A stretch of DNA of 64,000 nucleotides from a virus. The stretch covers positions 91,393-155,392 of the IMG/VR virus record IMGVR_UViG_3300033984_000473; one strand, written 5' to 3'. The notes beneath the pieces were generated by a model. The model was given only the letters and a program-made list of their open reading frames with translations. It searched no databases and was not told where the DNA came from. The position numbers and the translations under genes were made by a program. Below, piece after piece: positions 1,051 to 63,612 of the stretch (position 1 is its first letter; each line of letters opens with the position of its first letter).

Positions 1051-1328
1051 TTGATTTGTTTTAATTTACAACCTCTAAATGTTTTCTGTCCTTTGATATA
1101 TGGGAATAGGTTATAGAAGTTTCTCCATACCTTATCGGAACGTTTCAATGATGGCACTCTAACAGATATTTGACCGTAACCACCATCACCACTTTTGACA
1201 TTGTAGGCTTTTTGGTTATCTCTGGTAACTTGCTTTGGCATATAGTTATAGTCTGGTCTTCCATTCCATCTAAGTCCCCAGTGTCCGTTATAGGATTTGA
1301 CTAGTCTGTATATTGGTTTTTCTTCCAT
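1047..1328 (-). CDS. hypothetical protein (93 aa)
   Basis: ORF with 4-nt overlap with upstream gene (ATGA-type coupling). Confidence 0.5.
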   Translation of the reverse strand: MEEKPIYRLVKSYNGHWGLRWNGRPDYNYMPKQVTRDNQKAYNVKSGDGGYGQISVRVPSLKRSDKVWRNFYNLFPYIKGQKTFRGCKLKQIK

Positions 1329-2077
1329 TAGTATCTTTCGTTAAATCGTTTAAGGATATCTAGTAGATAAGGGTCTAGTTTACTTTCTACGTAGTCTATA
1401 TCTGCTTGTGTTAGGTCTTGAAGGTGATAGTTTAGTAGTTCACCAACTATTGATGCGTTTGTATCGGTATCACCGCCACAGCTAACAACGTTTTTGATAG
1501 CATCTTGGGTGTTCTTATCTGAATGATAGATAAATGCACTTTTACAGAATCTAAAAGTATCTTTGGCTTTCACTTCAAACTTTTTAAATGGAAATAATTT
1601 AAACTTAATAAAGTAGTCATACTCCTTAACGTTTGCATAGTACAGTTCAGCCAGTTCCAACGAATATACAATGCTTTCAGCGTTCACGTGTGATGTTAGG
1701 CAAGATTCAGCGATAAGTTCTTTGGTTGTTAACAAAGCATTTGATAGATACATAAACGGTGCTATTCTCATAAGACAGCCGTTACCCCAAGATTTATTAA
1801 TGGTACCCATTGGTGAGTTAAGCCATTCTTTGAAGTCTTTCCCATAGTGGTCGCCTTGGTATCTCATACCAACTTCTTTGTATGCTTCCTCGAATGATTG
1901 GTTATCTAGGATTGCTTTGGCAGTTGCCAGTGTCATTAGCGTATCATCGCTAAATACTGAATCTGGGTTATGTAGGTTGATTGTATCTTCTGGTGGGAAG
2001 TTTGCCATAATGGGAAACTCGTAGGGTTGTCCTACGAGGTCACCAAGTATTGCTCCGTATAGTTTATCTTTTTTCAT
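1328..2077 (-). CDS. ADP-ribosylglycohydrolase family protein
   Basis: N-terminal GAILGDLVGQPYE, central GNGCLMRIAP, C-terminal GGDTDTNASIVGEL, the three hallmark ARH/DraG motifs. Start moved to MKKDK because the ORF-track start reads through the promoter -7 box. Confidence 0.8.
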   Translation of the reverse strand: MKKDKLYGAILGDLVGQPYEFPIMANFPPEDTINLHNPDSVFSDDTLMTLATAKAILDNQSFEEAYKEVGMRYQGDHYGKDFKEWLNSPMGTINKSWGNGCLMRIAPFMYLSNALLTTKELIAESCLTSHVNAESIVYSLELAELYYANVKEYDYFIKFKLFPFKKFEVKAKDTFRFCKSAFIYHSDKNTQDAIKNVVSCGGDTDTNASIVGELLNYHLQDLTQADIDYVESKLDPYLLDILKRFNERY

Positions 2078-2081
2078 AGTA

Positions 2082-2114
2082 CAAAGGTACATATAATATT
2101 TCATATATGCAAAT
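2082..2114 (-). promoter_or_regulatory. promoter (-33 TTTG / -7 TACCTTTG), leaderless type (ATG 4 nt after the -7 box)
   Basis: gtacaaaggtacatataatatttcatatatgcaaa. Confidence 0.6.
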
Positions 2115-26995: not shown

Positions 26996-27879
26996 TAGTT
27001 CATCTCATTGTATGCTAAATTTACTCTAGCATTTTGTCTTAATTTCTTAAGTGATTTTTCTTTGATTTGACGAGCCATCTCACGTGTGATGCCAACTTCA
27101 TCACCAATCTCTTTCAAGGTCATTGGTATCGCCCCATTCAACCCAAACAACGCTTCCATTACACGTTTATCTCTTGGTTTCAATATATCTAGACTAGCCG
27201 CAATCTCTGATTGGACATCTTGTTGATATAATAAATGGTCAGTAGCCTTATATGTTGAATCATCAGAGATTAAATCTGATAACATAGACCCAGAACCACC
27301 ATCATCAGTTCCAATAGTACGGTCCATTGAGTCCATGTTGTATGTATTCAAGACATCCAAGAACATAAAGTCCTCACTAGATATCTCGTTTCCAAACTCA
27401 CTTATCACTTCGTTGATGTCAACACTACGACCAGCTTTTTGTTCCAATTCTTGGATGTACTTATCCAACTTAGACAAGTTATTAACCTTGTTTGCTGGAA
27501 TACGAACCAACTTACCATATTTGGTAATGTGTTCCATAATGATTTTTCTAACCCACCATACAGCATATGAAATGAATTTGTAGCCCATGTCTGGTGTGAA
27601 CTTTTCAGCCGCCAATACCAACCCAATGTTACCTTCGTTAACCAAGTCTTCCAAGTGAACATTTTCTGTAGCATATTGCTTAGCAACCGATACTACGAAA
27701 CGTAGATTTCTACGTACCAATTCATCGATAGCCTTTCTATCGCCTTTACTAGCCTTTTCAGTACATATCTTTTCTTCTTCTGGTGTGAACATAGGAATAC
27801 ATGAAATGTCTTTCAAATACTGTTTAAACGATTCATTTTCCGTGTTCGTGTACTTCTGTGCAATTTTAAATTGTCTCAT
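26995..27879 (-). CDS. sigma-70 family RNA polymerase sigma factor
   Basis: Region 2 (NLRFVVSVAKQY...GNIGLVLAAEKF...YAVWWVRKII) and region 4 HTH (TLKEIGDEVGITREMARQIKEKSLKKLR). Confidence 0.85.
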   Translation of the reverse strand: MRQFKIAQKYTNTENESFKQYLKDISCIPMFTPEEEKICTEKASKGDRKAIDELVRRNLRFVVSVAKQYATENVHLEDLVNEGNIGLVLAAEKFTPDMGYKFISYAVWWVRKIIMEHITKYGKLVRIPANKVNNLSKLDKYIQELEQKAGRSVDINEVISEFGNEISSEDFMFLDVLNTYNMDSMDRTIGTDDGGSGSMLSDLISDDSTYKATDHLLYQQDVQSEIAASLDILKPRDKRVMEALFGLNGAIPMTLKEIGDEVGITREMARQIKEKSLKKLRQNARVNLAYNEMN

Positions 27880-29235: not shown

Positions 29236-29342
29236 ATTCGGTTATACTATATGGTGGTCTATCACCTTAGCCTTTCGCTAAAACTGTTAATGTGTGCCTC
29301 ACTGGACTACTCAACCAATGTCGCTTTAATAGTATAACCTAG

Positions 29343-29413
29343 AAACTCATACTGGATTCGAACCAGTGTCTGCGGGCTCCACGCCCCCCGTGGTTCCACT
29401 CCACTAATGAATC
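29343..29413 (-). tRNA. tRNA, 71 nt, possibly Pro (UGG)
   Basis: Acceptor GATTCAT/ATGAGTT, D-arm GTGG-AGTGGAA-CCAC, T-arm ACTGG-TTCGAAT-CCAGT. Anticodon stem GGGGG/CCCGC has one mismatch; loop CGTGGAG. Confidence 0.6.
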
Positions 29414-50508: not shown

Positions 50509-51279
50509 TTACAATTTAGGTATAAGATTTATTAAAAAATCTCTATCACTAGTGAATATAGGTGTTTCTAAGGCTACCCAGTTACGTCTAACAGCAGCTG
50601 CTTCACCACTATAGTCAATATCTGCTACTCTTTTGATAACTACCCCACGTTTATACTTGGTTTTATAGTCATTCCAATTGATACCCTTCTCATTAAACAA
50701 CATTTCCTGTTTATCACTACCAGATTTACCCTCTAATAGTTTGTGTGAAAAGTTAGCAGATGCGGCCATACTAATACTATTTCTAGTACAGTCTTGCTGT
50801 CTGAATATCATAGCGTTAACCATTTCATCAACCGTAGGTACTTGGAATACACGAGCATCAAAGAAAGCTAATTTGTTTAAGCTTTCAGCTAACCCTTCCA
50901 TACCTTGCATCGTTGACCTTAGATGCCTTAACTGGTTGAACTTAGCAGTTGCCAAAGAGGCAGCAATACTTGTCATCTTTTGTACGCTGTAATCAAACCA
51001 CGCACTAGTTTCAAGTGTGTCATAATCGCACAACACCACGCTGATTTCGTCAGATTGTGTGTAAGCAAACTTTGCACCTTGAATGTTCTCACATAAGAAG
51101 ATTGCGGTTGCATCCATGTCATCGCTAAACCCATCATCGAATGGTTTGTTTAAGTTTTTAGTGAATTTAGAAAATCCTTTACCATCAAGTCTAATGATTG
51201 TAATTGTTCTTCTATTCAAAAAAGTTTTGGTTCTGTTTTCGTAGAATTCTTTCATTCTATCACCTAAAGATAAAGTCAT
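50509..51279 (-). CDS. Thg1-like protein (tRNA-His guanylyltransferase family, 3'-5' nucleotidyl transferase)
   Basis: TIIRLDGKGFSKFTK, FAYTQSDEISVVL and GINWNDYKTKYKRGVV align with Thg1 VVRIDGKKFHEFSK, AFGESDEYSF and GINYNN..FKKGS. Confidence 0.7.
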   Translation of the reverse strand: MTLSLGDRMKEFYENRTKTFLNRRTITIIRLDGKGFSKFTKNLNKPFDDGFSDDMDATAIFLCENIQGAKFAYTQSDEISVVLCDYDTLETSAWFDYSVQKMTSIAASLATAKFNQLRHLRSTMQGMEGLAESLNKLAFFDARVFQVPTVDEMVNAMIFRQQDCTRNSISMAASANFSHKLLEGKSGSDKQEMLFNEKGINWNDYKTKYKRGVVIKRVADIDYSGEAAAVRRNWVALETPIFTSDRDFLINLIPKL

Positions 51280-51280
51280 T

Positions 51281-51904
51281 TTATTTTTTGTTTAGTTTAA
51301 GAATGCAAGTAATTGCTATTCTTGGTTTTGTTGTTGAATTTTCGTTTGAATAATGAACCGAGAACTGATTATGTACAACGCAATCACCATACTTCAACTC
51401 TACTGGTGTAAAGTCTTCCATTGGAATTTCTGATGTGTATTGTGACATACCAGTCTTACCAGTTCTTGTTCTTAGATTTGACCCACAATTTTCGTGATTG
51501 ATTATTTCTCGTTTACCATCCCAATCAGCATAAAACATCGTTGAAGTCGAAACATCAACGTCATGCAATGGAATCCAGAAGGTTAGAATGTCATCATCAT
51601 TGTTATCAAAGTAAGCACCATCTTGATGTGGTGCTGTAATCTTGTAATCTGGATGTTTGATAAAATACTGCATGTTAATAACTTCACCATCATAACCCAA
51701 TACATTTTTTATGTATTTGGCTAACTCCATAAACAGGTGATAACCATGGCAGTTCTGGATTTGTTTTACGTCACCATTCTTGGTTCTGAAAACATTTTCG
51801 TCTTTACATTGCAAAGCAATTGTTTCAAAATCTCGACTGAAAAGGTCTAACAATTCTGTATTAAAAGCTTTTTTTAGTATTTCATATCCTTTTTCCATTA
51901 CCAT
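51281..51904 (-). CDS. PhyH-like 2OG-Fe(II) oxygenase
   Basis: APHQDGAYF (HxD) plus downstream His; fold-typical spacing. Confidence 0.6.
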   Translation of the reverse strand: MVMEKGYEILKKAFNTELLDLFSRDFETIALQCKDENVFRTKNGDVKQIQNCHGYHLFMELAKYIKNVLGYDGEVINMQYFIKHPDYKITAPHQDGAYFDNNDDDILTFWIPLHDVDVSTSTMFYADWDGKREIINHENCGSNLRTRTGKTGMSQYTSEIPMEDFTPVELKYGDCVVHNQFSVHYSNENSTTKPRIAITCILKLNKK

Positions 51905-52089
51905 GAGTCATAATCGGTTATATCCTTTTCAATTCCATAGTCTTCAAATCTTACCTTTACGTTAAGACCGATACCAGTATAAGAAATTAGATAAGAAACC
52001 TTACCAAGCTTTCCATGTAAAAAATTTACACTTTCTTCTAGCTTTGCAAGTGTTTCCACTTCTTTTTCGTTTAAGTTAAAGTCAGCCAT
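51898..52089 (-). CDS. small hypothetical protein (63 aa)
   Basis: Short ORF tightly coupled to neighbours. Confidence 0.4.
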   Translation of the reverse strand: MADFNLNEKEVETLAKLEESVNFLHGKLGKVSYLISYTGIGLNVKVRFEDYGIEKDITDYDSW

Positions 52090-53081
52090 TAAAATCTTTC
52101 TTTTTTAAGCCCTTCGTAGCTTGTTTTACTATTGATTGCACTAACAGCTAAACCGATTTGTTTTGCCATGCTAATAACATTTAGTTTATCATTACCAAAG
52201 ATACCATTGTAATCTGTTGGTTTTCTTAATGAATCACTAATAACCAATTCAGTTAGTACTGAATTTTCAATACGAGCCAAAGCTGGTCCAGAACAGATAC
52301 CATGACTGATGATTGCTCTTACACTCTTGGCACCAGCTTCCATAATAACTTCAGCGGCTTTGCAAAGTGTTCCAGCAGTATCAACCATATCATCTAAGAT
52401 GATTACGTTCTTACCACTAACATCACCAATGATAACCATATCATCAATAACGTTGGCTTGTTTACGAGTTTTATCCAACATAACATAATTGATTGAAATG
52501 TCATGGTAGTTAGCCAATTGGTCTTTCATACGTTTAACACGTTTACCAGAACCAGCATCTGGGCCACACAAGATTGTATCTTCATCATATATCGAAGCGA
52601 TGTACGAATCAAAAACATTTTTACCTTCTAAGTGTGTAACTGGGATATTGAAAAACCCTTGAATTTGGTCAGCATGTAAATCAAATGTGATAACACCTGT
52701 TGCTCCACGATGCTCAATCATTTCAACCATAACCTTGGCACCGATAGGTCCACGTGATTGGTCTTTCTTGTCTTGACGAGCGTATGGGAAGTAAGGTAAG
52801 ATTGGAATAATCTCTCTAGCGGCTGCACGTTTGGCGGCATCTATCGCTAGATTTAACTTTATGATTTCATCTGAATTATTAGGGCTAGACAAGATATAAA
52901 CTCGCTTGCCTCTAATTGATGATTCAAAATCCACACATAACTCACCATCAGAAAATTTCTGACTGTTGATTATGTCTAGCTTTACTTTCTCTTTTATCTT
53001 TGAATTGTTATTGATAAAATCAATAACACTATTGGCTAAATCTTCTCTACCATCTAACGCCACTAATACTGAATCATTCAT
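52089..53081 (-). CDS. prs: ribose-phosphate pyrophosphokinase (PRPP synthetase)
   Basis: HADQIQGFF, PYARQDKK and PRPP-binding DDMVDTAGT motifs; start moved to MNDSVLV past the promoter. Confidence 0.9.
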   Translation of the reverse strand: MNDSVLVALDGREDLANSVIDFINNNSKIKEKVKLDIINSQKFSDGELCVDFESSIRGKRVYILSSPNNSDEIIKLNLAIDAAKRAAAREIIPILPYFPYARQDKKDQSRGPIGAKVMVEMIEHRGATGVITFDLHADQIQGFFNIPVTHLEGKNVFDSYIASIYDEDTILCGPDAGSGKRVKRMKDQLANYHDISINYVMLDKTRKQANVIDDMVIIGDVSGKNVIILDDMVDTAGTLCKAAEVIMEAGAKSVRAIISHGICSGPALARIENSVLTELVISDSLRKPTDYNGIFGNDKLNVISMAKQIGLAVSAINSKTSYEGLKKERF

Positions 53082-53098
53082 AGTTATATATTTTTTAA

Positions 53099-53130
53099 CA
53101 AAGGTACATAAAAATTTTTGAATAAACAAA
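53099..53130 (-). promoter_or_regulatory. promoter (-33 TTTG / -7 TACCTTTG) for prs
   Basis: taacaaaggtacataaaaatttttgaataaacaaatg. Confidence 0.6.
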
Positions 53131-53136
53131 TGTTTA

Positions 53137-53310
53137 TTATTCTTTATTACTTTTTCTATTAAATAAATAAATAACACCAGCAATCAAAGATGCCGTTGCC
53201 AAGTATTTCAATACACTAACGAATAAAAATATTCCAAAGAAAATACCTTGTAAGACGAACAATACTAGTAATACTGCTATAAAAATTCCGATTAATTTTA
53301 CTGTTTTCAT
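53137..53310 (-). CDS. small membrane protein
   Basis: Hydrophobic; start trimmed to MKTVK. Confidence 0.4.
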   Translation of the reverse strand: MKTVKLIGIFIAVLLVLFVLQGIFFGIFLFVSVLKYLATASLIAGVIYLFNRKSNKE

Positions 53311-53955: not shown

Positions 53956-54308
53956 TATTTTTTTACTTTAACAGAGTCAAGCAATTGCTGAACTCTTTTG
54001 TTATCTTTTTTCGCTTTAGCAAATTCTTTTGCCGCTCTTTCGTCAATAACTTCACAAATCGCTATTGCTCTTAGATTTACATAGTGCTTACCTTGATATT
54101 CACTTCCTTTCACTACAAACGCAACTGTAACAACTTCGTTTACCATAAAGGTATCCAAGGCATCTACATTGTCGTTAATGAAATCTAATTTTAATTTTTC
54201 TGGGTAAGCTTCATCAGTTTCAATGATAAATTCTATTTTTTTAAATTTATCACCAAATGTTTGTACTTCACCAATGTGTCTAATTGTTCCTTCTACAAAA
54301 TAATGCAT
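53955..54308 (-). CDS. hypothetical protein
   Basis: Start trimmed to MHYFVEG to reduce overlap with the Sir2 gene. Confidence 0.45.
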   Translation of the reverse strand: MHYFVEGTIRHIGEVQTFGDKFKKIEFIIETDEAYPEKLKLDFINDNVDALDTFMVNEVVTVAFVVKGSEYQGKHYVNLRAIAICEVIDERAAKEFAKAKKDNKRVQQLLDSVKVKK

Positions 54309-54309
54309 C

Positions 54310-55062
54310 TTATTTGTCGTTTTTATCGTCTCCGATTGCATGCGTTAATAATCTATTTACTACTTCTGTTACACCTTCAACTGCTGATTTCTTTACGTAC
54401 TCAACCTTAAGCCCATAATTATCTAAATAATGCATCGGCTCTGGGTCGATGTAAATTATTTGACAATCGGTTCTCACATTTTGTAACATATCCAAAGTAT
54501 AACCAATTTGTAAGCTTGTACCAATTATTAATAATATATTGGCATTACGAACTGCTTGATATGCTCTGTCAACATGTTTTGGATATTCACCAAACCATAC
54601 AATATCTGGTCTAAGTTGTGAATCAAATTTATCATCTTTATCACCAATGTTGATGTCGTTGTATCCTATGTCTATTGATTCGCAAACATCAGAAAAAGGA
54701 CCTCGACTACCACCATAACAACCTTTGGCTTTGGTTAATTCACCATGCAAGTGTAATATATTGGTTGAGCCACCTCTTTCATGTAAATCATCAACGTTTT
54801 GAGTTGTGATAGTTACATCATATTCTTCTTCCAAGGAAGCCAACGCTGTGTGAGCAGCATTCGGGTGAACATCTGGTAATTGTCGTCTTCTCTCGTTGTA
54901 GAAGTCCAATACCATAGCTCTATCTTTTTTCCAACCTTCGATAGTTGCTACGTCCTCAACCTTATGGTTATTCCATAGGCCATCTTTGACATCTCTAAAG
55001 GTGAGGATTCCAGATTCTTTGCTGATACCAGCACCACTAAAAATTACAATTTTCTTTTTCAT
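54310..55062 (-). CDS. Sir2-family NAD-dependent deacylase / ADP-ribosyltransferase
   Basis: GAGISKESGILTFRD, QNVDDLHERGGS, IIGTSLQ sirtuin motifs. Confidence 0.85.
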   Translation of the reverse strand: MKKKIVIFSGAGISKESGILTFRDVKDGLWNNHKVEDVATIEGWKKDRAMVLDFYNERRRQLPDVHPNAAHTALASLEEEYDVTITTQNVDDLHERGGSTNILHLHGELTKAKGCYGGSRGPFSDVCESIDIGYNDINIGDKDDKFDSQLRPDIVWFGEYPKHVDRAYQAVRNANILLIIGTSLQIGYTLDMLQNVRTDCQIIYIDPEPMHYLDNYGLKVEYVKKSAVEGVTEVVNRLLTHAIGDDKNDK

Positions 55063-55361
55063 TATCTATTGTTTAATGTTCTTAAACCAGCAAAAAAGAT
55101 TTTGATACCCTTGATTATAATACCTAACCCACCAACATAACCGAAGTTATACCAGAAACCGTTATTGTTTATAGCGTAGATAGCAATGTTATCTGAGAAA
55201 AGACTACAAATGAATGCTGGGAACATAATCATACCATGCCAAACTCCACCCCAAAATCCATAAACTTCTTGATTTGGGTCAAGGAATTGTATATGTGCAA
55301 CATCGGCACATCCAGTTAATAACAACAGCACAAATGCTGCTAAGAATATTTTTGTTTTCAT
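55062..55361 (-). CDS. membrane protein (99 aa)
   Basis: Signal and TM segments. Confidence 0.45.
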   Translation of the reverse strand: MKTKIFLAAFVLLLLTGCADVAHIQFLDPNQEVYGFWGGVWHGMIMFPAFICSLFSDNIAIYAINNNGFWYNFGYVGGLGIIIKGIKIFFAGLRTLNNR

Positions 55362-55567
55362 ATTTTTTTGTTTTTTATTATATCAAATGTTAAGTTATTA
55401 TGTATCTTGATTTGGTCTGACCTATAATGTTTAATATCGCCACCGTCACATAAAACAATGCACCATATATCATTTTCAAATGTTCCACCATTTGTAACAT
55501 AAATAGCATAACCTTCTTTATCTTCTTCAACAATCACAGGTATTGGAGTTTTAAATTCTAACATCAT
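55358..55567 (-). CDS. small hypothetical protein (69 aa)
   Basis: Short ORF. Confidence 0.4.
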   Translation of the reverse strand: MMLEFKTPIPVIVEEDKEGYAIYVTNGGTFENDIWCIVLCDGGDIKHYRSDQIKIHNNLTFDIIKNKKI

Positions 55568-55926
55568 AGTGAATCTTTTATTTTTTTCAAACGAGCTTCA
55601 ACCCGTCTGTTTACTTCTTCTTCAATAACTCTACTAGTACTTAAAGAAACAATCTTTTCCGTGATACCGTTGATTTTATCATCAACATGTCTAATCATGC
55701 TACTTTCAATTTGTTTTAGTCTGAAGTTAACCCTTTCAGTCAACGCTGATTTTGTTTCTTTTGTTATACCTTCTGCGAAGAAATCTAATTCATCGTTTAG
55801 ATACTTGGTTAATATCTCTTTGACTTCACTATTAGATAATAAAACTGTTTCATCTGAAGTAGTTTTAATCTTCATGTTATCAAATTTATTTGAGTTGTAC
55901 GTTAATAAATCACTAATCCTTGCCAT
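55564..55926 (-). CDS. hypothetical protein (120 aa)
   Basis: ORF in gene train. Confidence 0.5.
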   Translation of the reverse strand: MARISDLLTYNSNKFDNMKIKTTSDETVLLSNSEVKEILTKYLNDELDFFAEGITKETKSALTERVNFRLKQIESSMIRHVDDKINGITEKIVSLSTSRVIEEEVNRRVEARLKKIKDSL

Positions 55927-56356
55927 TATAGTTAGCAGTTAATAAATTTAAAACCAAACCCCAATCATTCTCTGGGTCAAATCCAGCTTTGTCCTCAAAC
56001 AAAACGTTCATGTAAGGTTTTTTATCATAACATCCATATCCGTTGGTTTGTGTCGGAACCTCTGGGTTCTCATTCACATACTTGAAATGAATATCATTCT
56101 TTTTGAATAATTCCAAATACTCATCAACCTCGTTAGGGTGTGAACACGTATAAAGGAACATTACAATATCTGGTCGTTTGCTGATAAATTGTAACGTTTC
56201 TATAGCCAAAGGATAAAATTCATCGGGTGTACTACCAACAGTGTAATTAGGTTTAAGAATTGTACCATGAATATCAAAGGCCCAAAATGTTCGGTCCCAG
56301 TTTCTAGTAATTTTGTACTCGAAGTGATTCGTTAGAATCGATTTAGTTATACTCAT
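55913..56356 (-). CDS. hypothetical protein, possibly a degenerate HAD-like fold
   Basis: AFDIHGTI resembles HAD motif I with the second Asp replaced by His. Confidence 0.4.
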   Translation of the reverse strand: MSITKSILTNHFEYKITRNWDRTFWAFDIHGTILKPNYTVGSTPDEFYPLAIETLQFISKRPDIVMFLYTCSHPNEVDEYLELFKKNDIHFKYVNENPEVPTQTNGYGCYDKKPYMNVLFEDKAGFDPENDWGLVLNLLTANYNGKD

Positions 56357-56358
56357 AG

Positions 56359-56538
56359 TTATGTTTCAAAAATGTTTCTAAAATCTAAAATGTTCATTGA
56401 GAAATATGTGTCTTCTACTTTGAAGAACACAGCACTTCCAATATATGTTAGGTTAGTTGGTTGCCATTCTTTGACTACGTTGAGTGGGAACGTTTGTTCA
56501 CCTTCGTTGGCAACGCCTACTTTAACAAGGTCATTCAT
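56359..56538 (-). CDS. small ORF (~59 aa), not in ORF track
   Basis: My translation: MNDLVKVGVANEGEQTFPLNVVKEWQPTNLTYIGSAVFF...; the promoter element at 56569-56602 lies ~30 nt upstream. Confidence 0.4.
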   Translation of the reverse strand: MNDLVKVGVANEGEQTFPLNVVKEWQPTNLTYIGSAVFFKVEDTYFSMNILDFRNIFET

Positions 56539-56568
56539 TAATGCTAAATTTAAAAATTGTTATTTAAC

Positions 56569-56602
56569 AAAGGTACTAATACTTTTGTTAAAAAGCAAGA
56601 GA
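56569..56602 (-). promoter_or_regulatory. promoter (-33 CTTG / -7 TACCTTTG)
   Basis: taacaaaggtactaatacttttgttaaaaagcaag. Confidence 0.55.
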
Positions 56603-56627
56603 AACCTAAAAATTATAGTAAACTGTA

Positions 56628-57077
56628 TTACGGTACATAGTTTACAATCGTAACATACTCACCACGAAGTTCTTCGTCAATGATTGCTTCAATTGTAGCC
56701 CAATCACCACCAGCTAACCCAGCACCAATCTTTGGTAAACCAAATGTTTTACCAGAAAATTTAGCTTTCATCAACTTCAACGCAGAACGCAAAGCATCAT
56801 AGTCTAAATCCATCTGACCACTTCGTCTTCCAGTATAGTCATATTGACCATACAAGTTAACAACTATTGGTTTTGTAGCTTCACTATATGAAATAGTACC
56901 TAGCTTGTTAATATCCCCTTGAACTGTCTTGCAGTCAGCAGCGTAAGCATCTGGGAATTTATGTTTGATTTGCGGGGCAATACCAGCACCCATAGTGTTG
57001 AAACAATTACAACAGTGCCCAATTACTTCGTAGTTTTCGGCATCCTTAACAAGGTCACCATCGATATATCTAATCAT
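56628..57077 (-). CDS. macro-domain protein (ADP-ribose binding or hydrolysing)
   Basis: VIGHCCNCFNTMGAGIA and FGLPKIGAGLAGGDW macro signatures; start trimmed to MIRYIDGD. Confidence 0.8.
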   Translation of the reverse strand: MIRYIDGDLVKDAENYEVIGHCCNCFNTMGAGIAPQIKHKFPDAYAADCKTVQGDINKLGTISYSEATKPIVVNLYGQYDYTGRRSGQMDLDYDALRSALKLMKAKFSGKTFGLPKIGAGLAGGDWATIEAIIDEELRGEYVTIVNYVP

Positions 57078-57591
57078 TTTGTTTAAATTTTTTGTTTGCC
57101 ATTTCAATACTAGCAGCGATTGTGTCAACTAAAGTATTATAAATGATTGGGTTATATAATTCGTTTTCTTTGGCAACAGCTTCCCACATGATGTCTAAAT
57201 AACCCATACGATAAGCATCGTCTGGTCTACCATAAATCATTTTTTGTGGTTCTCTACCTTGCCAGTAACCAAACTCCATATTGGTTGTTAGAGCAATAAG
57301 TTCTCTAGTTCTTGGTATCCAAAATAAGACACAATCAGCTTTTTTAAGACCATTATATTCCCACATAGGAATCCAAGCCTTGTCTTTATCTGATTCAGTC
57401 TTAGAAGTAAATTCTGGGATGATTAAATCACCTTCAAATCCTTGACGTTTAAATTCTTCAATAGCCTCAAAACGCCATGATGTTAAATGAGGTTGATTTC
57501 CTCTTACAGTTGGTCCAGCTAAGAAAACTGAAGGTCTGTTTATCGACCTTACAGTATCTTCTGATTCTTCATATCTATGTACTTGTACCAT
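57070..57591 (-). CDS. nucleoside 2-deoxyribosyltransferase-like (NDT-fold) protein
   Basis: SVFLAGPTVRG and ADCVLFWIP...ALTTNMEFGYWQG. Confidence 0.5.
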   Translation of the reverse strand: MVQVHRYEESEDTVRSINRPSVFLAGPTVRGNQPHLTSWRFEAIEEFKRQGFEGDLIIPEFTSKTESDKDKAWIPMWEYNGLKKADCVLFWIPRTRELIALTTNMEFGYWQGREPQKMIYGRPDDAYRMGYLDIMWEAVAKENELYNPIIYNTLVDTIAASIEMANKKFKQND

Positions 57592-58088
57592 TATGAATTT
57601 TTGTTAAATGTTTCTCTTACTCGCATAATGGCTTCACCTAACCAGTTTTTGCCTTGCCATTTGCTTTTGTCTTCGATGTTTCTGTGGTCAACACCCATTC
57701 CAATACCCCAAATCTTGTCGTATGGACTAGCCTCAACAATTTCTTTGTCATCAGTTTTCATTAACTCAACCTTTAGACTAGGATTTTGTGTGAATTTAGC
57801 CAAGTTACCTTGATAAACAAATTCTCTACACACTTCATTCCATCTGTCTGTGTTAAAGTTTTTAACTGTACGACCCAAAGATTTTTGGTCAACTGGTCTA
57901 GAGGCAGCCATGATAGCATCGTGACTCTCTTGGTCGTTGAATGTCAATGCTTTCATCGCCATCATGTATTGCTCACAGCAATTATATTCGATTCCAGCAA
58001 TGCTGAATTTAGACGAATACCACTGACTGTAGATTCCATTCCAAAAGAATACGAATTCATCAGTTGTTTTTTCGTTTGTATTTTTCAT
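57591..58088 (-). CDS. NADAR (DUF1768 / YbiA-like) family protein
   Basis: FVFFWNG, YNCCEQYMMAMKALTFND, VMYQGNLAKFTQNPSLKVELMKT and DKIWGIG match the NADAR signature. Confidence 0.85.
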   Translation of the reverse strand: MKNTNEKTTDEFVFFWNGIYSQWYSSKFSIAGIEYNCCEQYMMAMKALTFNDQESHDAIMAASRPVDQKSLGRTVKNFNTDRWNEVCREFVYQGNLAKFTQNPSLKVELMKTDDKEIVEASPYDKIWGIGMGVDHRNIEDKSKWQGKNWLGEAIMRVRETFNKNS

Positions 58089-58089
58089 T

Positions 58090-58479
58090 TTAAATAGTTT
58101 TTTTAGTCGTGCTTCTATGAAATTCAATCAATTCCACACTTTTTATTTCTAACCCTTTGGTATATGTGAAAGTTTCAAGTCTTTCTTTTATCATATCCAA
58201 GTGTTCCTGTGTTGGTTCTTCATCAAAGAAAATCACAACACCTTTATTGGTACCACCATCTATATCGTTACCCAACGCTACTGGTCTATACGTACCATTA
58301 TCATCAGCTTCATTTCCGATAACATCATCGAAAAATTCTGCAACAGTTTCATCGATTAATTCGTCACCAACTTCACAATCACCAACGTGACCAGTTAGGT
58401 GTGCACACATTTCTCTTTCAAAGTTTCCAGCGTACTGATTAGTTTCAATCAATACAGCAAATTTAGCTCTCATTCCCAT
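58090..58479 (-). CDS. hypothetical protein (129 aa)
   Basis: ORF in gene train. Confidence 0.5.
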   Translation of the reverse strand: MGMRAKFAVLIETNQYAGNFEREMCAHLTGHVGDCEVGDELIDETVAEFFDDVIGNEADDNGTYRPVALGNDIDGGTNKGVVIFFDEEPTQEHLDMIKERLETFTYTKGLEIKSVELIEFHRSTTKKTI

Positions 58480-59084
58480 TATTCTAAGTTTTTAAGTGCG
58501 TTAGCTTTATGGTTTGCACTAATTTTGTCATACAAACCAGATACAAGACTATAAGTGTATTCAAATAATCTTCGGAATGGGTTATTTAACAACGTACCCA
58601 ACAATGATAAAGGCCAGTATGAAATCCAAGCTACAATCGAAGCTTTATTATCCAATCCTTTCGGCATGATTTTATTTGCGATATCTGATGTAGTTTTAAC
58701 ATCACTACTATAAACACTAATACCAACAAGTCTTAATTTTTCACACAAATTAACGATATAGTTTGGTGCTTTTAATTCATCAACTTTATTAGCCACAGTT
58801 TTAAATTTTCGATATACTGATTTTACAAACTCATTCCATTTTAAGAATGACCATATAACCCCACATATCAAATACCCTACGATAAATAAAACGGTTACGA
58901 GTATGTTGGCGGTCATAAAGGTCCATGCAATACCACCGTAGTTCCAAATTAATAATGCGATAGCTAAACTAAAAGCTGTTGTCGCAGTTCCTTCTGATTG
59001 TAATTCTAGTGATATAATAATCACCAACGCTGCGATAATACTAAACCATAGTATGAATGTCGCACTTGCTAATAATGTTAACAT
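58479..59084 (-). CDS. integral membrane protein (201 aa)
   Basis: Several TM helices. Confidence 0.5.
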   Translation of the reverse strand: MLTLLASATFILWFSIIAALVIIISLELQSEGTATTAFSLAIALLIWNYGGIAWTFMTANILVTVLFIVGYLICGVIWSFLKWNEFVKSVYRKFKTVANKVDELKAPNYIVNLCEKLRLVGISVYSSDVKTTSDIANKIMPKGLDNKASIVAWISYWPLSLLGTLLNNPFRRLFEYTYSLVSGLYDKISANHKANALKNLE

Positions 59085-59096
59085 GTTTTTCTTTTT

Positions 59097-60662
59097 TTAA
59101 ATTGTTATTTTTGCTCTTTCTCTAATTTCTTCGAATGTGTAATCAACAAGGATTTCACCATTTCTAAATACTTCAACCAATTCATCTGTTACTGAATCAA
59201 AGTCAGCATCCATTGATGTAACGGTTCTGTATGTACCATCATCATTCTTAACTAATTTAAGCTTTCCTTGCTTAGATTTTTTGAATGATTTTGTAATGTT
59301 ACCATCAGCATCCATTTCAGTTGGTGACTTAACAATATTTCTTTCTTCACCATTAACAATTGCATAACATGCTTTGGTTGCGAAGTTTTGCGTATCTCTG
59401 TTGATATCTGCTTGTAGCAATTTACCACCCATACCCAACGCTAAGTTCTCTGGAGAGATTTTCAATTCATCTAACATTGCGTAGATTTCTCTGATTGAAT
59501 CCAAATTTACACCATCACCTTGAATAACACGTACTTGTGGTGGCAATACCTTGTAACCTTTTTCATTGGTTGTGTAACCAAATTTATCGAATAAGATGTT
59601 GAAGATTTCTTTTAAAGTCATCAATACATCACCAGAATCTGGGCGTATAACCAATTGATTCCCTGGAGTTGCTGGTCTTGATAAAACCAATTCTTTCAAC
59701 TCAGTTCCCCAATACTCAGAACATGCTCTGAAAATGTTAAATGAATCTGATACACACGCAACCAATCCAGTAGGATAAGTTTTCAATACACGCATCATAA
59801 GTGCTAACTCACCTTCTTCACCGTTTAGGGTCATGATTGAGTGCTCTGTTGCTGGGATTGATAAACCATACACAGTTTCTGTGTTATAAAGGTCACGGAT
59901 TAATTTTGATGCTACTACGGTGTCTGAACCTCTAAAGTTCACCAAGTGAGCAGAACCACCAATCTTAGCTGATTGTACACTTGATACACCACGGAAACCG
60001 AAGTCATTCAATACGAAATCAACAAGGAAGTCGATAAGGCCAGCATCATACGCTGTTCCTTTTACGAATGCGGCAGTAACGATTTTTCTTACTTCTCTAG
60101 AAAGTGAAGCAACGGTAATCGGATACCAAACTTGAAGCAATATTGACTCTAAGAAGTTGGTCAACCATGCACATTCTGGGTCAAGACTTTCAATTACGAA
60201 TAACACATTTTTAGTGTTAACGATAGTTCCTTCTGGAACCGCCTTGATGCTGATAGGTAATTTCCCATCATATTTGTCAACGATGTAATCAAACTTGCTT
60301 CTATCGAATACACCATCACGACCAAAGATACCTAATTCATTACCTAACATATCGTTAGCTTCATCAACTTCTTCTTTTGTAATAGCAATACCCTCTAAGT
60401 ATTGTTTAAGTACAATCTGTAAACCATAGAATACGGTTTCTGAAAATTTACCACCTCTTGATTCCATGTATGAAACCATCTTGGTCATTTCAGAACCATA
60501 GAATTTGTGGTGTGAATATTTGTAACCATCGGAACATAAGACCAAGTTATCTGGCTTAGTGATGATTTTAGTAAGGTATTTTTGCATACCTTCAATACTA
60601 GACCAGTCTTTATTTTGAATGGCTGTCGCTAAATTCGTAGCTAATTGTGTTTGTAAACTCAT
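59097..60662 (-). CDS. nadV: nicotinamide phosphoribosyltransferase (NAMPT / NadV)
   Basis: CSDGYKYSHHKFY, FGFRG, GSDT, SIPATEHS, VIRPDSGD, QGDGV conserved NAMPT motifs; start moved to MSLQT past the promoter. Confidence 0.9.
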   Translation of the reverse strand: MSLQTQLATNLATAIQNKDWSSIEGMQKYLTKIITKPDNLVLCSDGYKYSHHKFYGSEMTKMVSYMESRGGKFSETVFYGLQIVLKQYLEGIAITKEEVDEANDMLGNELGIFGRDGVFDRSKFDYIVDKYDGKLPISIKAVPEGTIVNTKNVLFVIESLDPECAWLTNFLESILLQVWYPITVASLSREVRKIVTAAFVKGTAYDAGLIDFLVDFVLNDFGFRGVSSVQSAKIGGSAHLVNFRGSDTVVASKLIRDLYNTETVYGLSIPATEHSIMTLNGEEGELALMMRVLKTYPTGLVACVSDSFNIFRACSEYWGTELKELVLSRPATPGNQLVIRPDSGDVLMTLKEIFNILFDKFGYTTNEKGYKVLPPQVRVIQGDGVNLDSIREIYAMLDELKISPENLALGMGGKLLQADINRDTQNFATKACYAIVNGEERNIVKSPTEMDADGNITKSFKKSKQGKLKLVKNDDGTYRTVTSMDADFDSVTDELVEVFRNGEILVDYTFEEIRERAKITI

Positions 60663-60691
60663 ATTGTTAAATTTTTTGTTCTTATTTGATA

Positions 60692-60723
60692 CAAAGGTAC
60701 TAAAAGTTTTTTGGATAACCAAA
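60692..60723 (-). promoter_or_regulatory. promoter (-33 TTTG / -7 TACCTTTG) for nadV
   Basis: gatacaaaggtactaaaagttttttggataaccaaat. Confidence 0.6.
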
Positions 60724-60738
60724 TATTATATCGATTAT

Positions 60739-61080
60739 TTATTCATTCGTATTCACGATTAAAACTTTTTTACCTAATTTGTTTGCTTTATTGATACTAT
60801 CTTTAGTACCCTTAGATTCCATATCCCAAAAAGCTACTACTAATTCAGAAGCTTCCACTATCTGGGTATTCCTTAAAAAACCAGCAATTTTGCCATAGGC
60901 TTTCCAATCTGGTTTAAATATAAGAGTTTCAATACCATTTTCTTTGGCATAATCCTCACCCAACGTATCAGCACCAGCGGCACCACCACTTATTATCAAT
61001 GTTATACCTAATGGTTGTAGTGTTTTCTTTACTAATTCATAATCAGTAAAGCCTCGACTACCTATAATAGCTACTTTCAT
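60739..61080 (-). CDS. SLOG-superfamily protein (DUF2493 / YspA-like)
   Basis: IIGSRGF...ISGGAAGADTLGEDYAKENGI...FLRNTQIVEASELVVAFWD. Confidence 0.65.
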   Translation of the reverse strand: MKVAIIGSRGFTDYELVKKTLQPLGITLIISGGAAGADTLGEDYAKENGIETLIFKPDWKAYGKIAGFLRNTQIVEASELVVAFWDMESKGTKDSINKANKLGKKVLIVNTNE

Positions 61081-62576
61081 TAGTAATTACTTAATGTACC
61101 CTTGTTATTTCTAACAATAACACTAGTAGGTTTTAATTCTTTTGGGCTAGTTAACCCCATAGCACCCAAAACTTCACGAATTTCATGAATTACAGCTGTA
61201 TGATAGTTAAAAACACGTACTTTTTTCTCTTCTGGGTTCAACGCACTGATTAAATGCTTGTTTTGAGTAGCAATTCCTACTGGACATGTGTTCATATTAC
61301 ACTCTCTAGCTTGAATACATCCTAAACTAAGCATAAATGCACGTGCTGCGTTAACAATATCAGCACCCAACGCCAATAATTTGATAATATCGAATGAGTT
61401 GCTAGCTTTTCCAGATGCAATAAGAGTAATTTTGTCTCTCAAGTCGTATTGTTTAAGTGTTTTATTAACAAAAATCAACGCATCTACTAGTGGCATACCA
61501 ACATTATTGGTAAAAACTATCGGTGCAGCACCTGTTCCACCCTCTCCACCATCAATTGTGATGAAATCTGGGTATATTTTTAGTTCTTTCATAGTATACA
61601 CCAACGATATGAACTCACTTTCATCACCTAGACATAGTTTTATACCTATAGGTAACCCATCAGATAGGTCTCTAAGCTCACTTATGAACTCTAATAACTC
61701 TTTATGGTTAGTAAATGCACTATGGTATGGGGGACTCATTACATCTACATGTGGTTCTACCCCACGTATGTCAGCAATTTCTTGAGTATTCTTAGATGCT
61801 GGGAGAATACCACCATGACCAGGCTTGGCCCCTTGTGATAATTTTATCTCTACCATCTTGATACTCTTATTATTTAATATAGTATCAAAAAATCTAGGTG
61901 TTGAAAATACACGTCTACCATCAACTGTTCTGCCAGCACCAAAGTAACCAGTTCCAATTTGGAAACATAAATCCCCACCATTCTCTACATGATAAGGACT
62001 AACACCACCTTCACCTGTATTGTGATAGAAGTTACCTAGCTTGGCACCACCATTCAATGCTCGAACAGCAGCATCTGACAAAGCTCCGTAACTCATTGCA
62101 CTAATGTTAAAGATACTAGCCGAATAAGGATGGCGACAGTTTTCACCACCAATCGTTACACGAGGCTCAGCAATCAATGAAATGTCTTTAGGGAACATAG
62201 AATGACCTAAGAACTCGTAACCTTCCTTATACACGTCTAATTGCGTTCCGAAGGGTGTTGTGTTGATTTCACCTTTGGCTTTTTGATAGACATCAGAACG
62301 TTTCTCACGATTGTATGGTGTTCCGTTGGTATCGTGCTCAATAAAGTATTGTTGTATCTTTGAACGTTCCGACTCAAAAACCCATCTAAGTCTTGCAACT
62401 AATGGGTAGTTTTTAAGTAGAGCATGTTTTGTTTGGAATATGTCGTGAATCACAACAATTAACGCAACTAAAAACAAGGTTGCTAATATCCATAAACCTA
62501 AGCTTTGAACTATGTAAGAAATTACACCCAAGGCTATTGTCCAATAAACAAAAAAGATTACGATTTTATCTCTCAT
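61080..62576 (-). CDS. glutamate-synthase-domain (GltS FMN-binding, PF01645-like) oxidoreductase with N-terminal TM anchor
   Basis: GLGCIQARECNMNTCPVGIATQN and GGEGGTGAAP signatures. Confidence 0.75.
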   Translation of the reverse strand: MRDKIVIFFVYWTIALGVISYIVQSLGLWILATLFLVALIVVIHDIFQTKHALLKNYPLVARLRWVFESERSKIQQYFIEHDTNGTPYNREKRSDVYQKAKGEINTTPFGTQLDVYKEGYEFLGHSMFPKDISLIAEPRVTIGGENCRHPYSASIFNISAMSYGALSDAAVRALNGGAKLGNFYHNTGEGGVSPYHVENGGDLCFQIGTGYFGAGRTVDGRRVFSTPRFFDTILNNKSIKMVEIKLSQGAKPGHGGILPASKNTQEIADIRGVEPHVDVMSPPYHSAFTNHKELLEFISELRDLSDGLPIGIKLCLGDESEFISLVYTMKELKIYPDFITIDGGEGGTGAAPIVFTNNVGMPLVDALIFVNKTLKQYDLRDKITLIASGKASNSFDIIKLLALGADIVNAARAFMLSLGCIQARECNMNTCPVGIATQNKHLISALNPEEKKVRVFNYHTAVIHEIREVLGAMGLTSPKELKPTSVIVRNNKGTLSNY

Positions 62577-63580
62577 TAGTATTTGATTAATTTATCAGTC
62601 ACCACTTTTTTCAAGAATGTTTTCATCAACTCAACGTGTTCTGGAACAATCTTATCTTCAACCTTAAAGCCATAGTCAACCTTTGGAATGTGCCCATCAC
62701 CTTGACTTGGTTCTGTTATTACATTTAAGAAATCTTTTAAGTCGAACCAACGAACTTCAGCGATATCGTCAGAAGCTTCTGGACGACCCATTTGGTCCCA
62801 TTCGTATGTCATAAACAATGTTGTCATGATACCAGATTCCTCTTTGGCGTATCTCCAATCTTCAACAGCTTGACTGCAAATATAAGTCATACCCAATGCT
62901 GATAACTTGGTTTCTTCCATCAACTCTCTACGAGCAGCCATTTCCCAGTTTACATCGTCACGGTCAACAAAACCACCAACAAATCTAAAAAGAGTTTCTG
63001 CTGGTTTTCTAGCCAAAAGGATTTGTCCTTCTCTAGCTACAACAACATCAACGGTTGCATAGGTTACTGGTCTTTGTTTTGAGATACCATAGATTATACC
63101 AGCTCTAAAATCTTCACTTTCTTCAACAGTTTGTGCTGCTAAACCTCTGATTTCAGTAGCGTTGTGAGATTCGATTGGTGTAAATTCTTCTACATGGTGT
63201 CTACCATGATAGTGAGGGATAAAAGAATCACGACTACCGTAAATGATAGCTTGTTTCTCTGGAAATATAGTTCTGATAGTGTTATCAAGGTTTGTTGACC
63301 ATTTTTCGTCACTTCTATTATCTTCTAAAGGTAGAACTATAACATTAGGATACGTATTTTGTATCATTTTCTTTCTGGTAGGAAAATCCAAAGGATTTCT
63401 TTTTGTATTCTGGATTCTAGCGATACCTAGAAATACAATAACATTTGAGTGTTTGTTGGTTACATGGTTAAGTAACCCTTTATGACCATCATGTAGATAA
63501 GGCGTTTCAAATCTACCAATAATAATCCCAATTGCTTCCGCTTCGTTTAATTTTTTCATGTTTCTAATTTTATAATACAA
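62576..63580 (-). CDS. nadM: bifunctional NMN adenylyltransferase / Nudix hydrolase (NadM-Nudix, NatV-like)
   Basis: Nucleotidyltransferase GIIIGRFETPYLHDGH (HxGH); C-terminal Nudix box GGFVDRDDVNWEMAARRELMEETKL. Confidence 0.85.
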   Translation of the reverse strand: MYYKIRNMKKLNEAEAIGIIIGRFETPYLHDGHKGLLNHVTNKHSNVIVFLGIARIQNTKRNPLDFPTRKKMIQNTYPNVIVLPLEDNRSDEKWSTNLDNTIRTIFPEKQAIIYGSRDSFIPHYHGRHHVEEFTPIESHNATEIRGLAAQTVEESEDFRAGIIYGISKQRPVTYATVDVVVAREGQILLARKPAETLFRFVGGFVDRDDVNWEMAARRELMEETKLSALGMTYICSQAVEDWRYAKEESGIMTTLFMTYEWDQMGRPEASDDIAEVRWFDLKDFLNVITEPSQGDGHIPKVDYGFKVEDKIVPEHVELMKTFLKKVVTDKLIKY

Positions 63581-63612
63581 AGGTACAAAAAAAATCCCGA
63601 TAAAACAAATTA
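63578..63612 (-). promoter_or_regulatory. promoter for nadM; its -33 lies inside the upstream terminator hairpin
   Basis: aatacaaaggtacaaaaaaaatcccgataaaacaaatt. Confidence 0.55.

Follow-up and report, generated by a model that had tools for sequence, protein, structure and literature searches.

Phage NAD+ reconstitution (NAD+, nicotinamide adenine dinucleotide) is described as NARP1, which consists of Adps and Namat, and as NARP2, which consists of a nicotinamide phosphoribosyltransferase (Nampt) and a nicotinamide mononucleotide adenylyltransferase (NMNAT). In 2026 a macro domain gene was described from NARP1 operons (bioRxiv 10.64898/2026.01.28.702374): the purified Adpp protein of Vibrio phage Gary (KNV71_gp137, NARP1-AP) converts ADP-ribose-1''-phosphate (ADPR-1''P) to ADP-ribose (ADPR) (Osterman et al., bioRxiv 10.64898/2026.01.28.702374, Table S1), and it lets NARP1 overcome the RES-domain defence aRES (bioRxiv 10.64898/2026.01.28.702374). 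Other phage erasers of ADP-ribose act against DarTG systems. Deletion of tk.4 sensitises T4 to DarTG2, its product being named AdfM (bioRxiv 10.1101/2025.11.20.689424), and three phages owe their rescue from DarTG1 to a NADAR protein, AdfN-Bas60, which neutralises DarT1 (PMC11825919). Here we report a trio of overlapping genes encoding a NADAR protein, a nucleoside 2-deoxyribosyltransferase (NDT)-fold protein and a macro domain protein in a 64,000-nucleotide stretch of viral DNA (the window; IMG/VR record IMGVR_UViG_3300033984_000473, positions 91,393 to 155,392). The three genes recur together beside phage NAD+ reconstitution genes, to which they may form an accessory module.

Before the experiments on Adpp, AdfN and AdfM, Iyer, Burroughs, Anantharaman and Aravind (2022) had described, in the passages retrieved from that work, domains of the Macro, NADAR, SLOG and Nudix families as co-occurring and as sharing gene neighbourhoods, with NADAR adjoining NadV/NadM (PMC9503650). 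A first-pass annotation of the window, made from the letters alone, had read the macro and NADAR genes as a candidate pair of erasers that reverse DNA ADP-ribosylation by DarT enzymes; with an ADP-ribosylglycohydrolase and recycling enzymes added, it inferred a three-eraser toolkit that it did not know as a described phage module.

Organization of the trio

The entire region is transcribed from the minus strand, and its GC skew is negative throughout. The trio is read in the order NADAR (57591-58088), NDT-fold gene (57070-57591) and macro domain gene (56628-57077); Pfam confirms both the adjoining macro and NADAR genes and the NDT-fold gene between them at the coordinates first annotated, and all three are on the minus strand, which the first-pass annotation did not give. 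The NADAR stop codon and the NDT start codon overlap in TAATG, the NDT stop overlaps the macro start by 8 nt (ATGATTAG), and an open reading frame (ORF) of 129 aa lying upstream stops 1 nt short of the NADAR ATG. With their stop and start codons overlapping in this way, all three genes make up a single translationally coupled unit. The ATG starts originally assigned agree with the homologues (P0121 begins MIRYIDGDL), which favour them over longer ORFs opening with TTG; the latter are unsupported. A scan for sigma-70 promoters and terminators was uninformative, as sites were no commoner than in shuffled sequence, and a tblastn search of the window for another paralogue of the macro or the NADAR found none.

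Macro domain protein

The macro domain protein (149 aa) matches Pfam PF01661 (E=3.4e-8, 33.9 bits, cut-off 22) and PHROG 335, labelled 'phosphatase' (E=1e-51). Its nearest solved structures by sequence are BT1257 (1.6e-12), SCO6735 (2.5e-10), DarG (1e-6), Poa1p (3e-6) and TARG1 (2e-5). A Foldseek search with the AlphaFold2 model (predicted local distance difference test score, pLDDT, of 88.5) returned TARG1 (E=1e-10), BT1257, DarG, Poa1p and SCO6735, with template modelling (TM) scores of 0.72-0.78. The macro fold and the ADP-ribose-binding glycine-rich loops MGAGIA and GAGLAGG place the protein in the TARG1/ALC1-like class.

Within this class the protein is of the Gln type represented by SCO6735. 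Gln78 occupies the site of the catalytic Lys of DarG (K80) and TARG1 (K84), NLYGQY is found where DarG-like proteins carry FPTK, and N24 and Q78 align with SCO6735 N27 and Q85. Both residues are invariant among 31 macro homologues, and H21 is kept in at least 90% of them. His21 presumably corresponds to His23 of Poa1p, a placement consistent with the mutant names H23A and S30A in PDB titles. In SCO6735, Gln85 and Asn27 are both essential for the hydrolysis of thymidine-linked ADP-ribose (thymidine-ADPr; PMC9411070). SCO6735 and BT1257 are the closest solved structures (E=1e-12 to 1e-10), with the Gln85 and Asn27 equivalents and the GxGLAGG loop kept; identity to them is 29-34%, however, and compared with SCO6735 the window protein has Cys22 for Val25 and a shorter mobile loop that lacks Lys89.

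Among the phage proteins compared, the closest are the macro proteins associated with NARP1, namely those of JG004 (45% identity, E=8e-40), phiAbaA1 (43%) and Gary, whose Adpp (40%, E=4e-29) shares with the window macro the motifs HxCNC..MGxGIA, N(L/V)YGQY and GLPxIGxGLAGGDW. T4 Tk.4 is homologous over its full length (34% over 149 aa, E=2e-26) and likewise has Gln at the DarG/TARG1 Lys position and the HxCNC motif. The window macro is therefore closer to the NARP1-associated ADPR-1''-phosphate phosphatases (40-45%) than to Tk.4 (34%). In a neighbour-joining tree it forms one phage clade with Tk.4 and the NARP1-associated macros, sister to BT1257 and SCO6735, and the DarG-like macros are placed apart from this clade. 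Experiments support two roles for this clade, as an ADPR-1''P phosphatase and as an anti-DarTG2 factor, between which sequence alone cannot choose for the window protein.

The first-pass annotation had interpreted this macro domain by reference to those of the DarG type. PhiKZ AdfM (gp104) and DarG2 do share its fold and TARG1-like class, and DarG is among the best fold matches, but the DarG-like assignment is ruled out by the Gln in place of the catalytic Lys, by the single-domain architecture and by a score of 39 bits against the NCBIfam DarG model, whose cut-off is 250. The 149-aa protein has no DarT-binding C-terminal domain and no adjoining darT, its neighbours being the NDT-fold, NADAR and Nampt genes and small ORFs, and the BLAST match to PhiKZ AdfM spans 30 residues only. 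Classification by profiles and structure model, which had been suggested as a check, instead gives a member of the Gln-type Adpp/Tk.4 clade with N24 and Q78 kept.

Several relatives carry a conserved, Lys/Arg-rich N-terminal extension of 74 aa on the macro ORF (L001:8527-8748; L027-L030, 10474-10695; L076, 10476-10688; L086, 1167-1253; related loci are numbered with L), which has no Pfam match. The window macro lacks it, its start being overlapped by the NDT gene instead.

NADAR protein

The first gene of the trio encodes a YbiA-type NADAR protein of 165 aa, which matches Pfam PF08719 (E=2.6e-51) and NCBIfam TIGR02464 (YbiA/ribofla_fusion; 155 bits, cut-off 73.7). Its best solved relative is 8bau (E=1.6e-14), named 'NADAR domain-containing protein' in PDB. 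We take this entry to be the Phytophthora (P. nicotianae) NADAR (PnNADAR), as an offset of +2 puts its chain residues on the published E43, K50, E125, D130 and W133, with which E39, K46, E119, D124 and W127 of the window protein align (PMC11543638). The Glu/Lys pair, conserved elsewhere as E43/K50 in PnNADAR and E36/K43 in T4 AdfN, is E39 and K46 here and is invariant in an alignment with the NADAR proteins of L001, Bas62, T4 (30.3) and a Vibrio phage.

The YbiA subfamily is defined by Glu at the PnNADAR E125 position (PMC11543638). With E119 at this third catalytic position and its TIGR02464 score, the window NADAR belongs to the YbiA subfamily and not to the DarT1-linked group, which has Asp, or to the T4-like group; DarG1 of E. 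coli C7 carries Asp (D171) where the window protein has Glu. No ADP-ribosyltransferase gene adjoins the NADAR gene, a statement that covers its immediate neighbours, as a DarT search of the whole window was not made.

Identity to the Bas62 NADAR (bas62_0106) is 38% (E=2e-33), and the NADAR proteins of Bas60, Bas61 and Bas62 have been handled as one protein, AdfN-Bas60 (PMC11825919). A closer relationship to T4 AdfN was rejected, since the window NADAR shows no detectable similarity to T4 30.3 and no alignment with it. The described AdfN entries (T4 30.3, Bas32, Bas60-62; PMC11825919) have the NADAR fold and the Glu/Lys pair in common with the window protein, which differs from them in being of the YbiA/TIGR02464 type, in its location in an NAD island and in being overlapped by, or in a relative fused with, an NDT-fold gene. 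Removal of guanine-ADPr in vitro is common to all NADAR subtypes tested, and enzymes of the YbiA type take off cytidine-ADPr as well; in cells, however, neither E. coli YbiA nor T4 gp30.3 rescued DarT1 toxicity.

NDT-fold protein

The middle gene encodes a 173-aa protein of the nucleoside 2-deoxyribosyltransferase fold (DrHyd superfamily), which matches Nuc_deoxyri_tr2 (PF15891; E=5.2e-9, 36.8 bits, cut-off 30). As a sequence search of PDB with this protein gave only noise, a fold search was needed. The AlphaFold2 model (pLDDT 89) found as its best match 4mcj (E=1e-5, TM 0.62), the uncharacterised putative NDT BDI_0649 of Parabacteroides, followed by true NDTs including that of T. brucei, in agreement with a Rossmann-like NDT fold. 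E106, in the invariant motif TTNxExG, is a candidate for the catalytic Glu nucleophile; E60, E78, D68 and D133 are invariant too.

We found 680 metagenomic homologues, many of them more than 60% identical, and the gene in only six GenBank phage records; no PHROG family matched. One of the phage relatives is Bacillus phage G gp334 (AEO93593.1), a Nudix fusion whose N-terminal domain is 36% identical to the window protein and which is cited as a viral DrHyd 'ARC-like' domain in the retrieved passages of Iyer et al. 2022 (PMC9503650). Scaffold L086 (386-1165) shows an in-frame fusion of the NADAR C-terminus with the NDT-fold protein (protein cluster P0019, with 58 members). A run of N lies further upstream, inside the NADAR gene, and the in-frame junction is outside this gap; the evidence for the fusion is moderate, as it is real in that assembly but not a clean case. 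The NDT-fold gene had been treated as a mere separator of the macro and NADAR genes. Its repeated presence in related loci shows otherwise: the module has in it a third, recurrent component, which is also the least described one. On a separate 494-kb contig (L008:12167-13279) an NDT-fold gene has other surroundings and lies 3.6 kb from an ORF that by eye resembles adenylosuccinate synthetase (PurA/PurZ-like).

NAD+ reconstitution island

Upstream of the trio on the minus strand lies a Nampt/NadV gene (59097..60722), with matches to Pfam NAPRTase and NAMPT_N and to NCBIfam PRK09198 (513 bits, cut-off 405). Its product has 41% identity to KVP40 Nampt (E=4e-93) and 28-32% to Namat enzymes. A divergent NMNAT-Nudix fusion (NadM/NatV-like; 62576..63580, minus strand) has a clear Nudix half (Pfam NUDIX, E=5e-15); the adenylyltransferase half scores 18.4 bits with CTP_transf_like, below the cut-off of 21, the NCBIfam models of bifunctional NMNAT/Nudix proteins match under their cut-offs, and BLASTP gave no match to KVP40 NatV. 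The fusion is syntenic in relatives. Ribose-phosphate diphosphokinase (Prs), which supplies phosphoribosyl pyrophosphate (PRPP), is encoded at 52089..53183 (minus strand; Pfam Pribosyltran_N, Pribosyl_synth and Pribosyltran) and passes NCBIfam PRK01259 (300.9 bits, cut-off 297), with only 26-27% identity to Adps enzymes. Because the Nampt is closer to that of KVP40 and Prs passes its cut-off, the island is of the NARP2 type. An assignment of Prs and Nampt as NARP1 Adps and Namat was rejected on the PRK01259 and PRK09198 passes and the low identities to Adps and Namat.

Related loci

No near-identical DNA for positions 54000-63600 was found by megablast among 50,697 phage records. Relatives were found only in IMG/VR and metagenomes, the IMG/VR contigs being 274-368 kb long, and a homologue of the NDT gene with 68% identity occurs in the 642-kb record LR756502.1. 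From these sizes the window probably derives from a huge phage.

A survey with the window NADAR as query found 57 loci on viral contigs, and the macro gene follows NADAR immediately in 17 of them. Fifteen of the 17 share one island, made up of NMNAT-Nudix, (SLOG), Nampt, NADAR, macro and a haloacid dehalogenase (HAD)-like gene, along with Prs and Thg1 where the locus extends far enough; Sir2 is present in 13. The remaining two are the diverged loci L036 and L038, in which an Adpp-type macro accompanies Adps-like and Namat genes in a NARP1 context. L036 reads Adps-like, NADAR, macro, an NDT gene (PF15891) and a Namat gene whose product is 52% identical to that of SPbetaL1. L038, from a phage with a T4-like capsid gene, reads Adps-like, macro, NADAR, a DUF1937/DUF4406 gene, Namat-like and SLOG; the DUF1937/DUF4406 gene we take to be NDT-related through a shared clan. 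The order is NDT-NADAR-macro in L088-90 and Nampt, NDT and a diverged NADAR in L108, and further NDT loci adjoin Nampt-NMNAT or Prs-like genes. The NADAR, macro and NDT-fold genes thus recur together in at least four gene orders, always beside NARP1- or NARP2-type genes. With the macro directly after NADAR in 17/57 loci and the trio recurring in several orders, the adjacency of macro and NADAR is not due to chance.

The composition of the island varies. NADAR is missing from the close relatives L002, L003 and L011. L002 (10266-10706) and L003 carry a second macro gene, 0.7 kb downstream of the Adpp/Tk.4-type one, whose product is DarG-like (M. tuberculosis DarG, E=1e-33; 44% identity to PhiKZ AdfM). 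That L002 holds both macro types argues that they are non-redundant and do different jobs, and the added DarG-like gene shows counter-defence genes to be accumulating in the island. Members of the same macro and NADAR families also co-occur in Vequintavirinae-like and related phages, about 70 kb from each other.

Proposed function and alternatives

With moderate confidence we propose, from homology and gene context, that the trio is an accessory module of the phage NAD+ reconstitution island that would free ADPR from forms blocked at C1'', as an NAD+-centred counter-defence. The macro, being of the Adpp/Tk.4/SCO6735 Gln type, would strip the 1''-phosphate left by RES-type NAD+ phosphorylases and could also strip thymine- or uracil-linked ADP-ribose, the YbiA-type NADAR would cut N-glycosidic links to guanine or cytosine, and the NDT-fold enzyme would cleave or transfer another N-ribosyl bond. 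The products would be free ADPR and repaired nucleic acid; Nudix, which would split ADPR into AMP and ribose-5-phosphate, and then Prs would route the ADPR to PRPP for Nampt. As the NARP2 island uses PRPP, freed ADPR could enter it only indirectly, through the Nudix domain and Prs, and the feeding of a salvage loop by freed ADPR that had first been proposed is narrowed accordingly. By unblocking C1'' the trio would protect the phage against NAD+-consuming host defences, DarT1 and DarT2 among them. What the three proteins act on, and that ADPR passes into salvage, we infer here, starting from observed domain identities, catalytic residues, a tight operon, homology to characterised enzymes and recurrent NARP1/NARP2 linkage. 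The NADAR-NDT fusion in L086 and the NDT-Nudix fusion in phage G gp334 support a functional module, and the retrieved passages of Iyer et al. 2022 arrive at a comparable view of the Macro, NADAR and SLOG domains of phages (PMC9503650).

Several points weigh against this proposal. As the phages that carry the 15 syntenic NARP2-island loci are related, these loci amount to about one observation, and independent support is a handful of rearranged loci (L036, L038, L088-90 and L108), and about half of the NDT-fold loci lack NAD genes inside 8 kb. We know of no NADAR protein shown to be active on a small-molecule NAD+ breakdown product. The macro and NADAR families are also common in phages without NARP genes, where they act against DarTG (T4; Bas60-62). 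NARP2 alone overcomes aRES in published tests (bioRxiv 10.64898/2026.01.28.702374), which makes an ADPR-1P phosphatase less obviously needed here than in NARP1.

A narrower possibility, doubtful but still to be reckoned with, is that macro and NADAR are a dedicated anti-DarTG pair, the macro serving as AdfM (thymine, DarT2) and the NADAR as AdfN (guanine, DarT1), while they would lie in the NAD island incidentally or only because anti-defence genes cluster. Knockout of Tk.4, the T4 homologue of the macro (34%, E=2e-26), does sensitise T4 to DarTG2, and Q78 and N24 are the SCO6735 residues essential for thymidine-ADPr hydrolysis (PMC9411070). The NADAR is 38% identical to that of Bas62, AdfN-Bas60 neutralises DarT1 and rescues three phages, and guanine-ADPr is removed in vitro by all NADAR subtypes tested; the DarG-like macro in the L002 island also suggests a locus that collects anti-DarT genes. 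That same island, however, retains the Gln-type macro beside a real DarG-like one, the window macro is nearer to the Adpp group associated with NARP than it is to Tk.4, DarT1 toxicity in cells was rescued by neither E. coli YbiA nor T4 gp30.3 although both remove guanine-ADPr in vitro, and the NADAR is dispensable in the close relatives L002, L003 and L011. An anti-DarTG pair would also leave the recurrent NDT-fold partner and the repeated linkage to both NARP1 and NARP2 unexplained. Of the idea of dual DarT erasers, what stands is that the catalytic residues are kept and that each protein is homologous to an anti-DarT phage factor; it is not new, and it is probably not the whole story. Judged from their homologues, two of the three enzymes likely reverse DarT1 and DarT2 modification, which would be neither their sole nor their organising function.

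TARG1-class macro proteins deacetylate O-acetyl-ADP-ribose, and the CobB-like Sir2 gene (E=6e-44) 1.6 kb downstream of the trio is present in 13/17 NADAR-macro loci. These facts, together with the name 'O-acetyl-ADP-ribose deacetylase' that the Joint Genome Institute gives to homologues of the macro and the match of the NADAR to TIGR02464, a model of riboflavin-intermediate N-glycosidases, are what would be expected of a housekeeping role, in which the macro deacetylates sirtuin-made O-acyl-ADP-ribose or reverses phage ADP-ribosylation and the NADAR and NDT-fold proteins clean damaged or surplus nucleotide or riboflavin intermediates (the classical YbiA activity). We consider such a role quite improbable: the macro persists in the Sir2-less islands L011, L035, L036 and L038, L039 and L073 have NADAR and Sir2 without macro, riboflavin genes are absent nearby, and the sirtuin is of the ordinary deacylase type and not a SirTM-like ADP-ribosyltransferase paired with a macro. 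It is more improbable still, in our estimate, that the trio degrades NAD-derived immune signals (cyclic ADPR (cADPR) isomers or histidine-ADPR, Thoeris-like) instead of serving salvage or repair. The SLOG protein in the same island would fit this, as would the classing of the phage G homologue of the NDT-fold protein as ADP-ribosyl-cyclase-like in the retrieved passages of Iyer et al. (PMC9503650), but none of the members of these clades is known to degrade a signalling nucleotide, and those relatives that are characterised act on ADPR-1P or base-linked ADPr. The accessory-module reading and its rivals overlap, as the enzyme families are promiscuous.

By analogy with Adpp, the NADAR and NDT-fold enzymes could further extend NAD+ reconstitution, turning N-glycosidically blocked NAD+ breakdown products into NARP1 or NARP2 substrates. 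This extension is speculative and, on balance, unlikely; candidate substrates would be ADPR linked to a base, molecules resembling cADPR or histidine-ADPR, and base-exchanged analogues of NAD, and the NDT-fold enzyme might transfer an ADP-ribosyl or ribosyl group directly onto nicotinamide without ATP.

Other features of the island and the window

All window features given here with coordinates are on the minus strand. Between Nampt and the trio lies a predicted membrane protein of 201 aa (58479..59084) with no Pfam or PHROG match, whose gene overlaps the next ORF by 1 nt and which is kept upstream of NADAR or NDT in L001, L002, L027, L029, L030 and L076. That next ORF, directly upstream of NADAR, encodes the acidic 129-aa protein (58090..58479); it has no Pfam match, its N-terminal 43 aa alone match phrog_23621, and it is window-specific, the related loci having given no counterpart. 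Downstream of the trio, several small ORFs and a conserved 147-aa protein (55913..56356) precede the sirtuin. The 147-aa protein is weakly HAD-phosphatase-like (NCBIfam BT0820 HAD phosphatase, E=4e-5, below the cut-off; PHROG 1238, E=2e-9), occurs in all island versions at 65-78% identity and could be a further phosphatase of the pathway. The CobB-like sirtuin itself (54310..55062; NAD-dependent deacylase type; Pfam SIR2, E=2.7e-40; E. coli CobB structures, E=6e-44) is conserved in 15/57 NADAR loci, 13 of these 15 being among the 17 with a macro gene; a SirTM-macro pairing was rejected on its ordinary CobB-like character.

A SLOG domain protein (YAcAr/YpsA-like; 60739..61080; PF10686, E=1.2e-14), found in 11 related islands, adjoins Nampt. 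Between NMNAT-Nudix and SLOG/Nampt sits a 498-aa protein with a glutamate-synthase FMN domain and a hydrophobic N-terminus (61080-62576; PF01645, E=1e-88), kept in L001, L011 and L076. Beside Prs lie a Thg1-like tRNA-His guanylyltransferase gene (PF04446, E=2.5e-30), syntenic in several relatives, and a gene for a PhyH-family dioxygenase (50509-51904 for both), and the island gene list has a DUF3127 protein near Prs. In relatives the Nampt gene is split by insertions of about 1 kb (L001:4350-6876, L020-L022 and L011), and related islands carry homing-endonuclease-like ORFs (DUF723, HNH/I-HmuI-like and LAGLIDADG), an indication that the NAD island may hold mobile introns or inteins.

Some 54 kb from the trio, the first-pass annotation had placed an ADP-ribosylglycohydrolase (1328-2077) as an eraser for proteins. 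The gene is real (ARH/DraG family; PF03747, E=4e-23) and extends over 1328..2104; its sole solved relative by sequence is Lmo0067 (E=1.4e-7), and none of its neighbours has a Pfam match. The window further encodes a sigma-factor-like protein (26995-27879; phrog_351), a tRNA-Pro(TGG) (29342-29413) and a protein (47754-49349) matching phrog_1745 ('DNA transfer protein') and, at 18.7 bits and below the cut-off of 21.5, a calcineurin-like phosphoesterase Pfam model.

Comparison with described systems

T4 is reported to carry both erasers, AdfN and AdfM, so the combination of macro and NADAR is not undescribed; the two-eraser idea is already realised there, and the locus is a variation on a known theme and not a new system. 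In T4, tk.4 and the NADAR gene 30.3 are about 67 kb apart and NAD+ reconstitution genes are missing, whereas in the window the two families form an adjoining module within an NAD+ island. Adpp likewise lies inside a phage NAD+ reconstitution operon, but that operon is Adps-Namat, whereas in the window Nampt, NMNAT and Prs make up a NARP2 island, and the described NARP1-AP has no NADAR or NDT-fold enzyme, with both of which the window macro is co-translated. In the literature searched, which includes the retrieved passages of Iyer et al. 2022 (PMC9503650), a tight NADAR-macro operon directly downstream of Nampt is undescribed, as are a NADAR-macro operon in both NARP1 and NARP2 contexts and a recurrent third partner, fused in some cases, in the form of the NDT-fold enzyme (PF15891); those passages do not describe a PF15891 gene as a recurrent NADAR/macro partner in NARP1/NARP2 operons.

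Such macro proteins are at present labelled 'phosphatase' and such NADAR proteins 'GTP cyclohydrolase II', and the NDT-fold gene is without a PHROG family, annotations that these results correct. NAD+ reconstitution (NARP1, NARP2 and NARP3) and the ADP-ribose erasers (AdfN, AdfM and Adpp) have been studied separately, and here and in relatives they are physically joined. This raises the questions of whether the Adpp/Tk.4 macro is bifunctional and whether the NADAR and NDT-fold enzymes extend NAD+ reconstitution to further 'non-canonical' NAD+ products. If the latter were true, there should be unrecognised bacterial defences that deplete NAD+ or divert it into N-linked ADPR conjugates.

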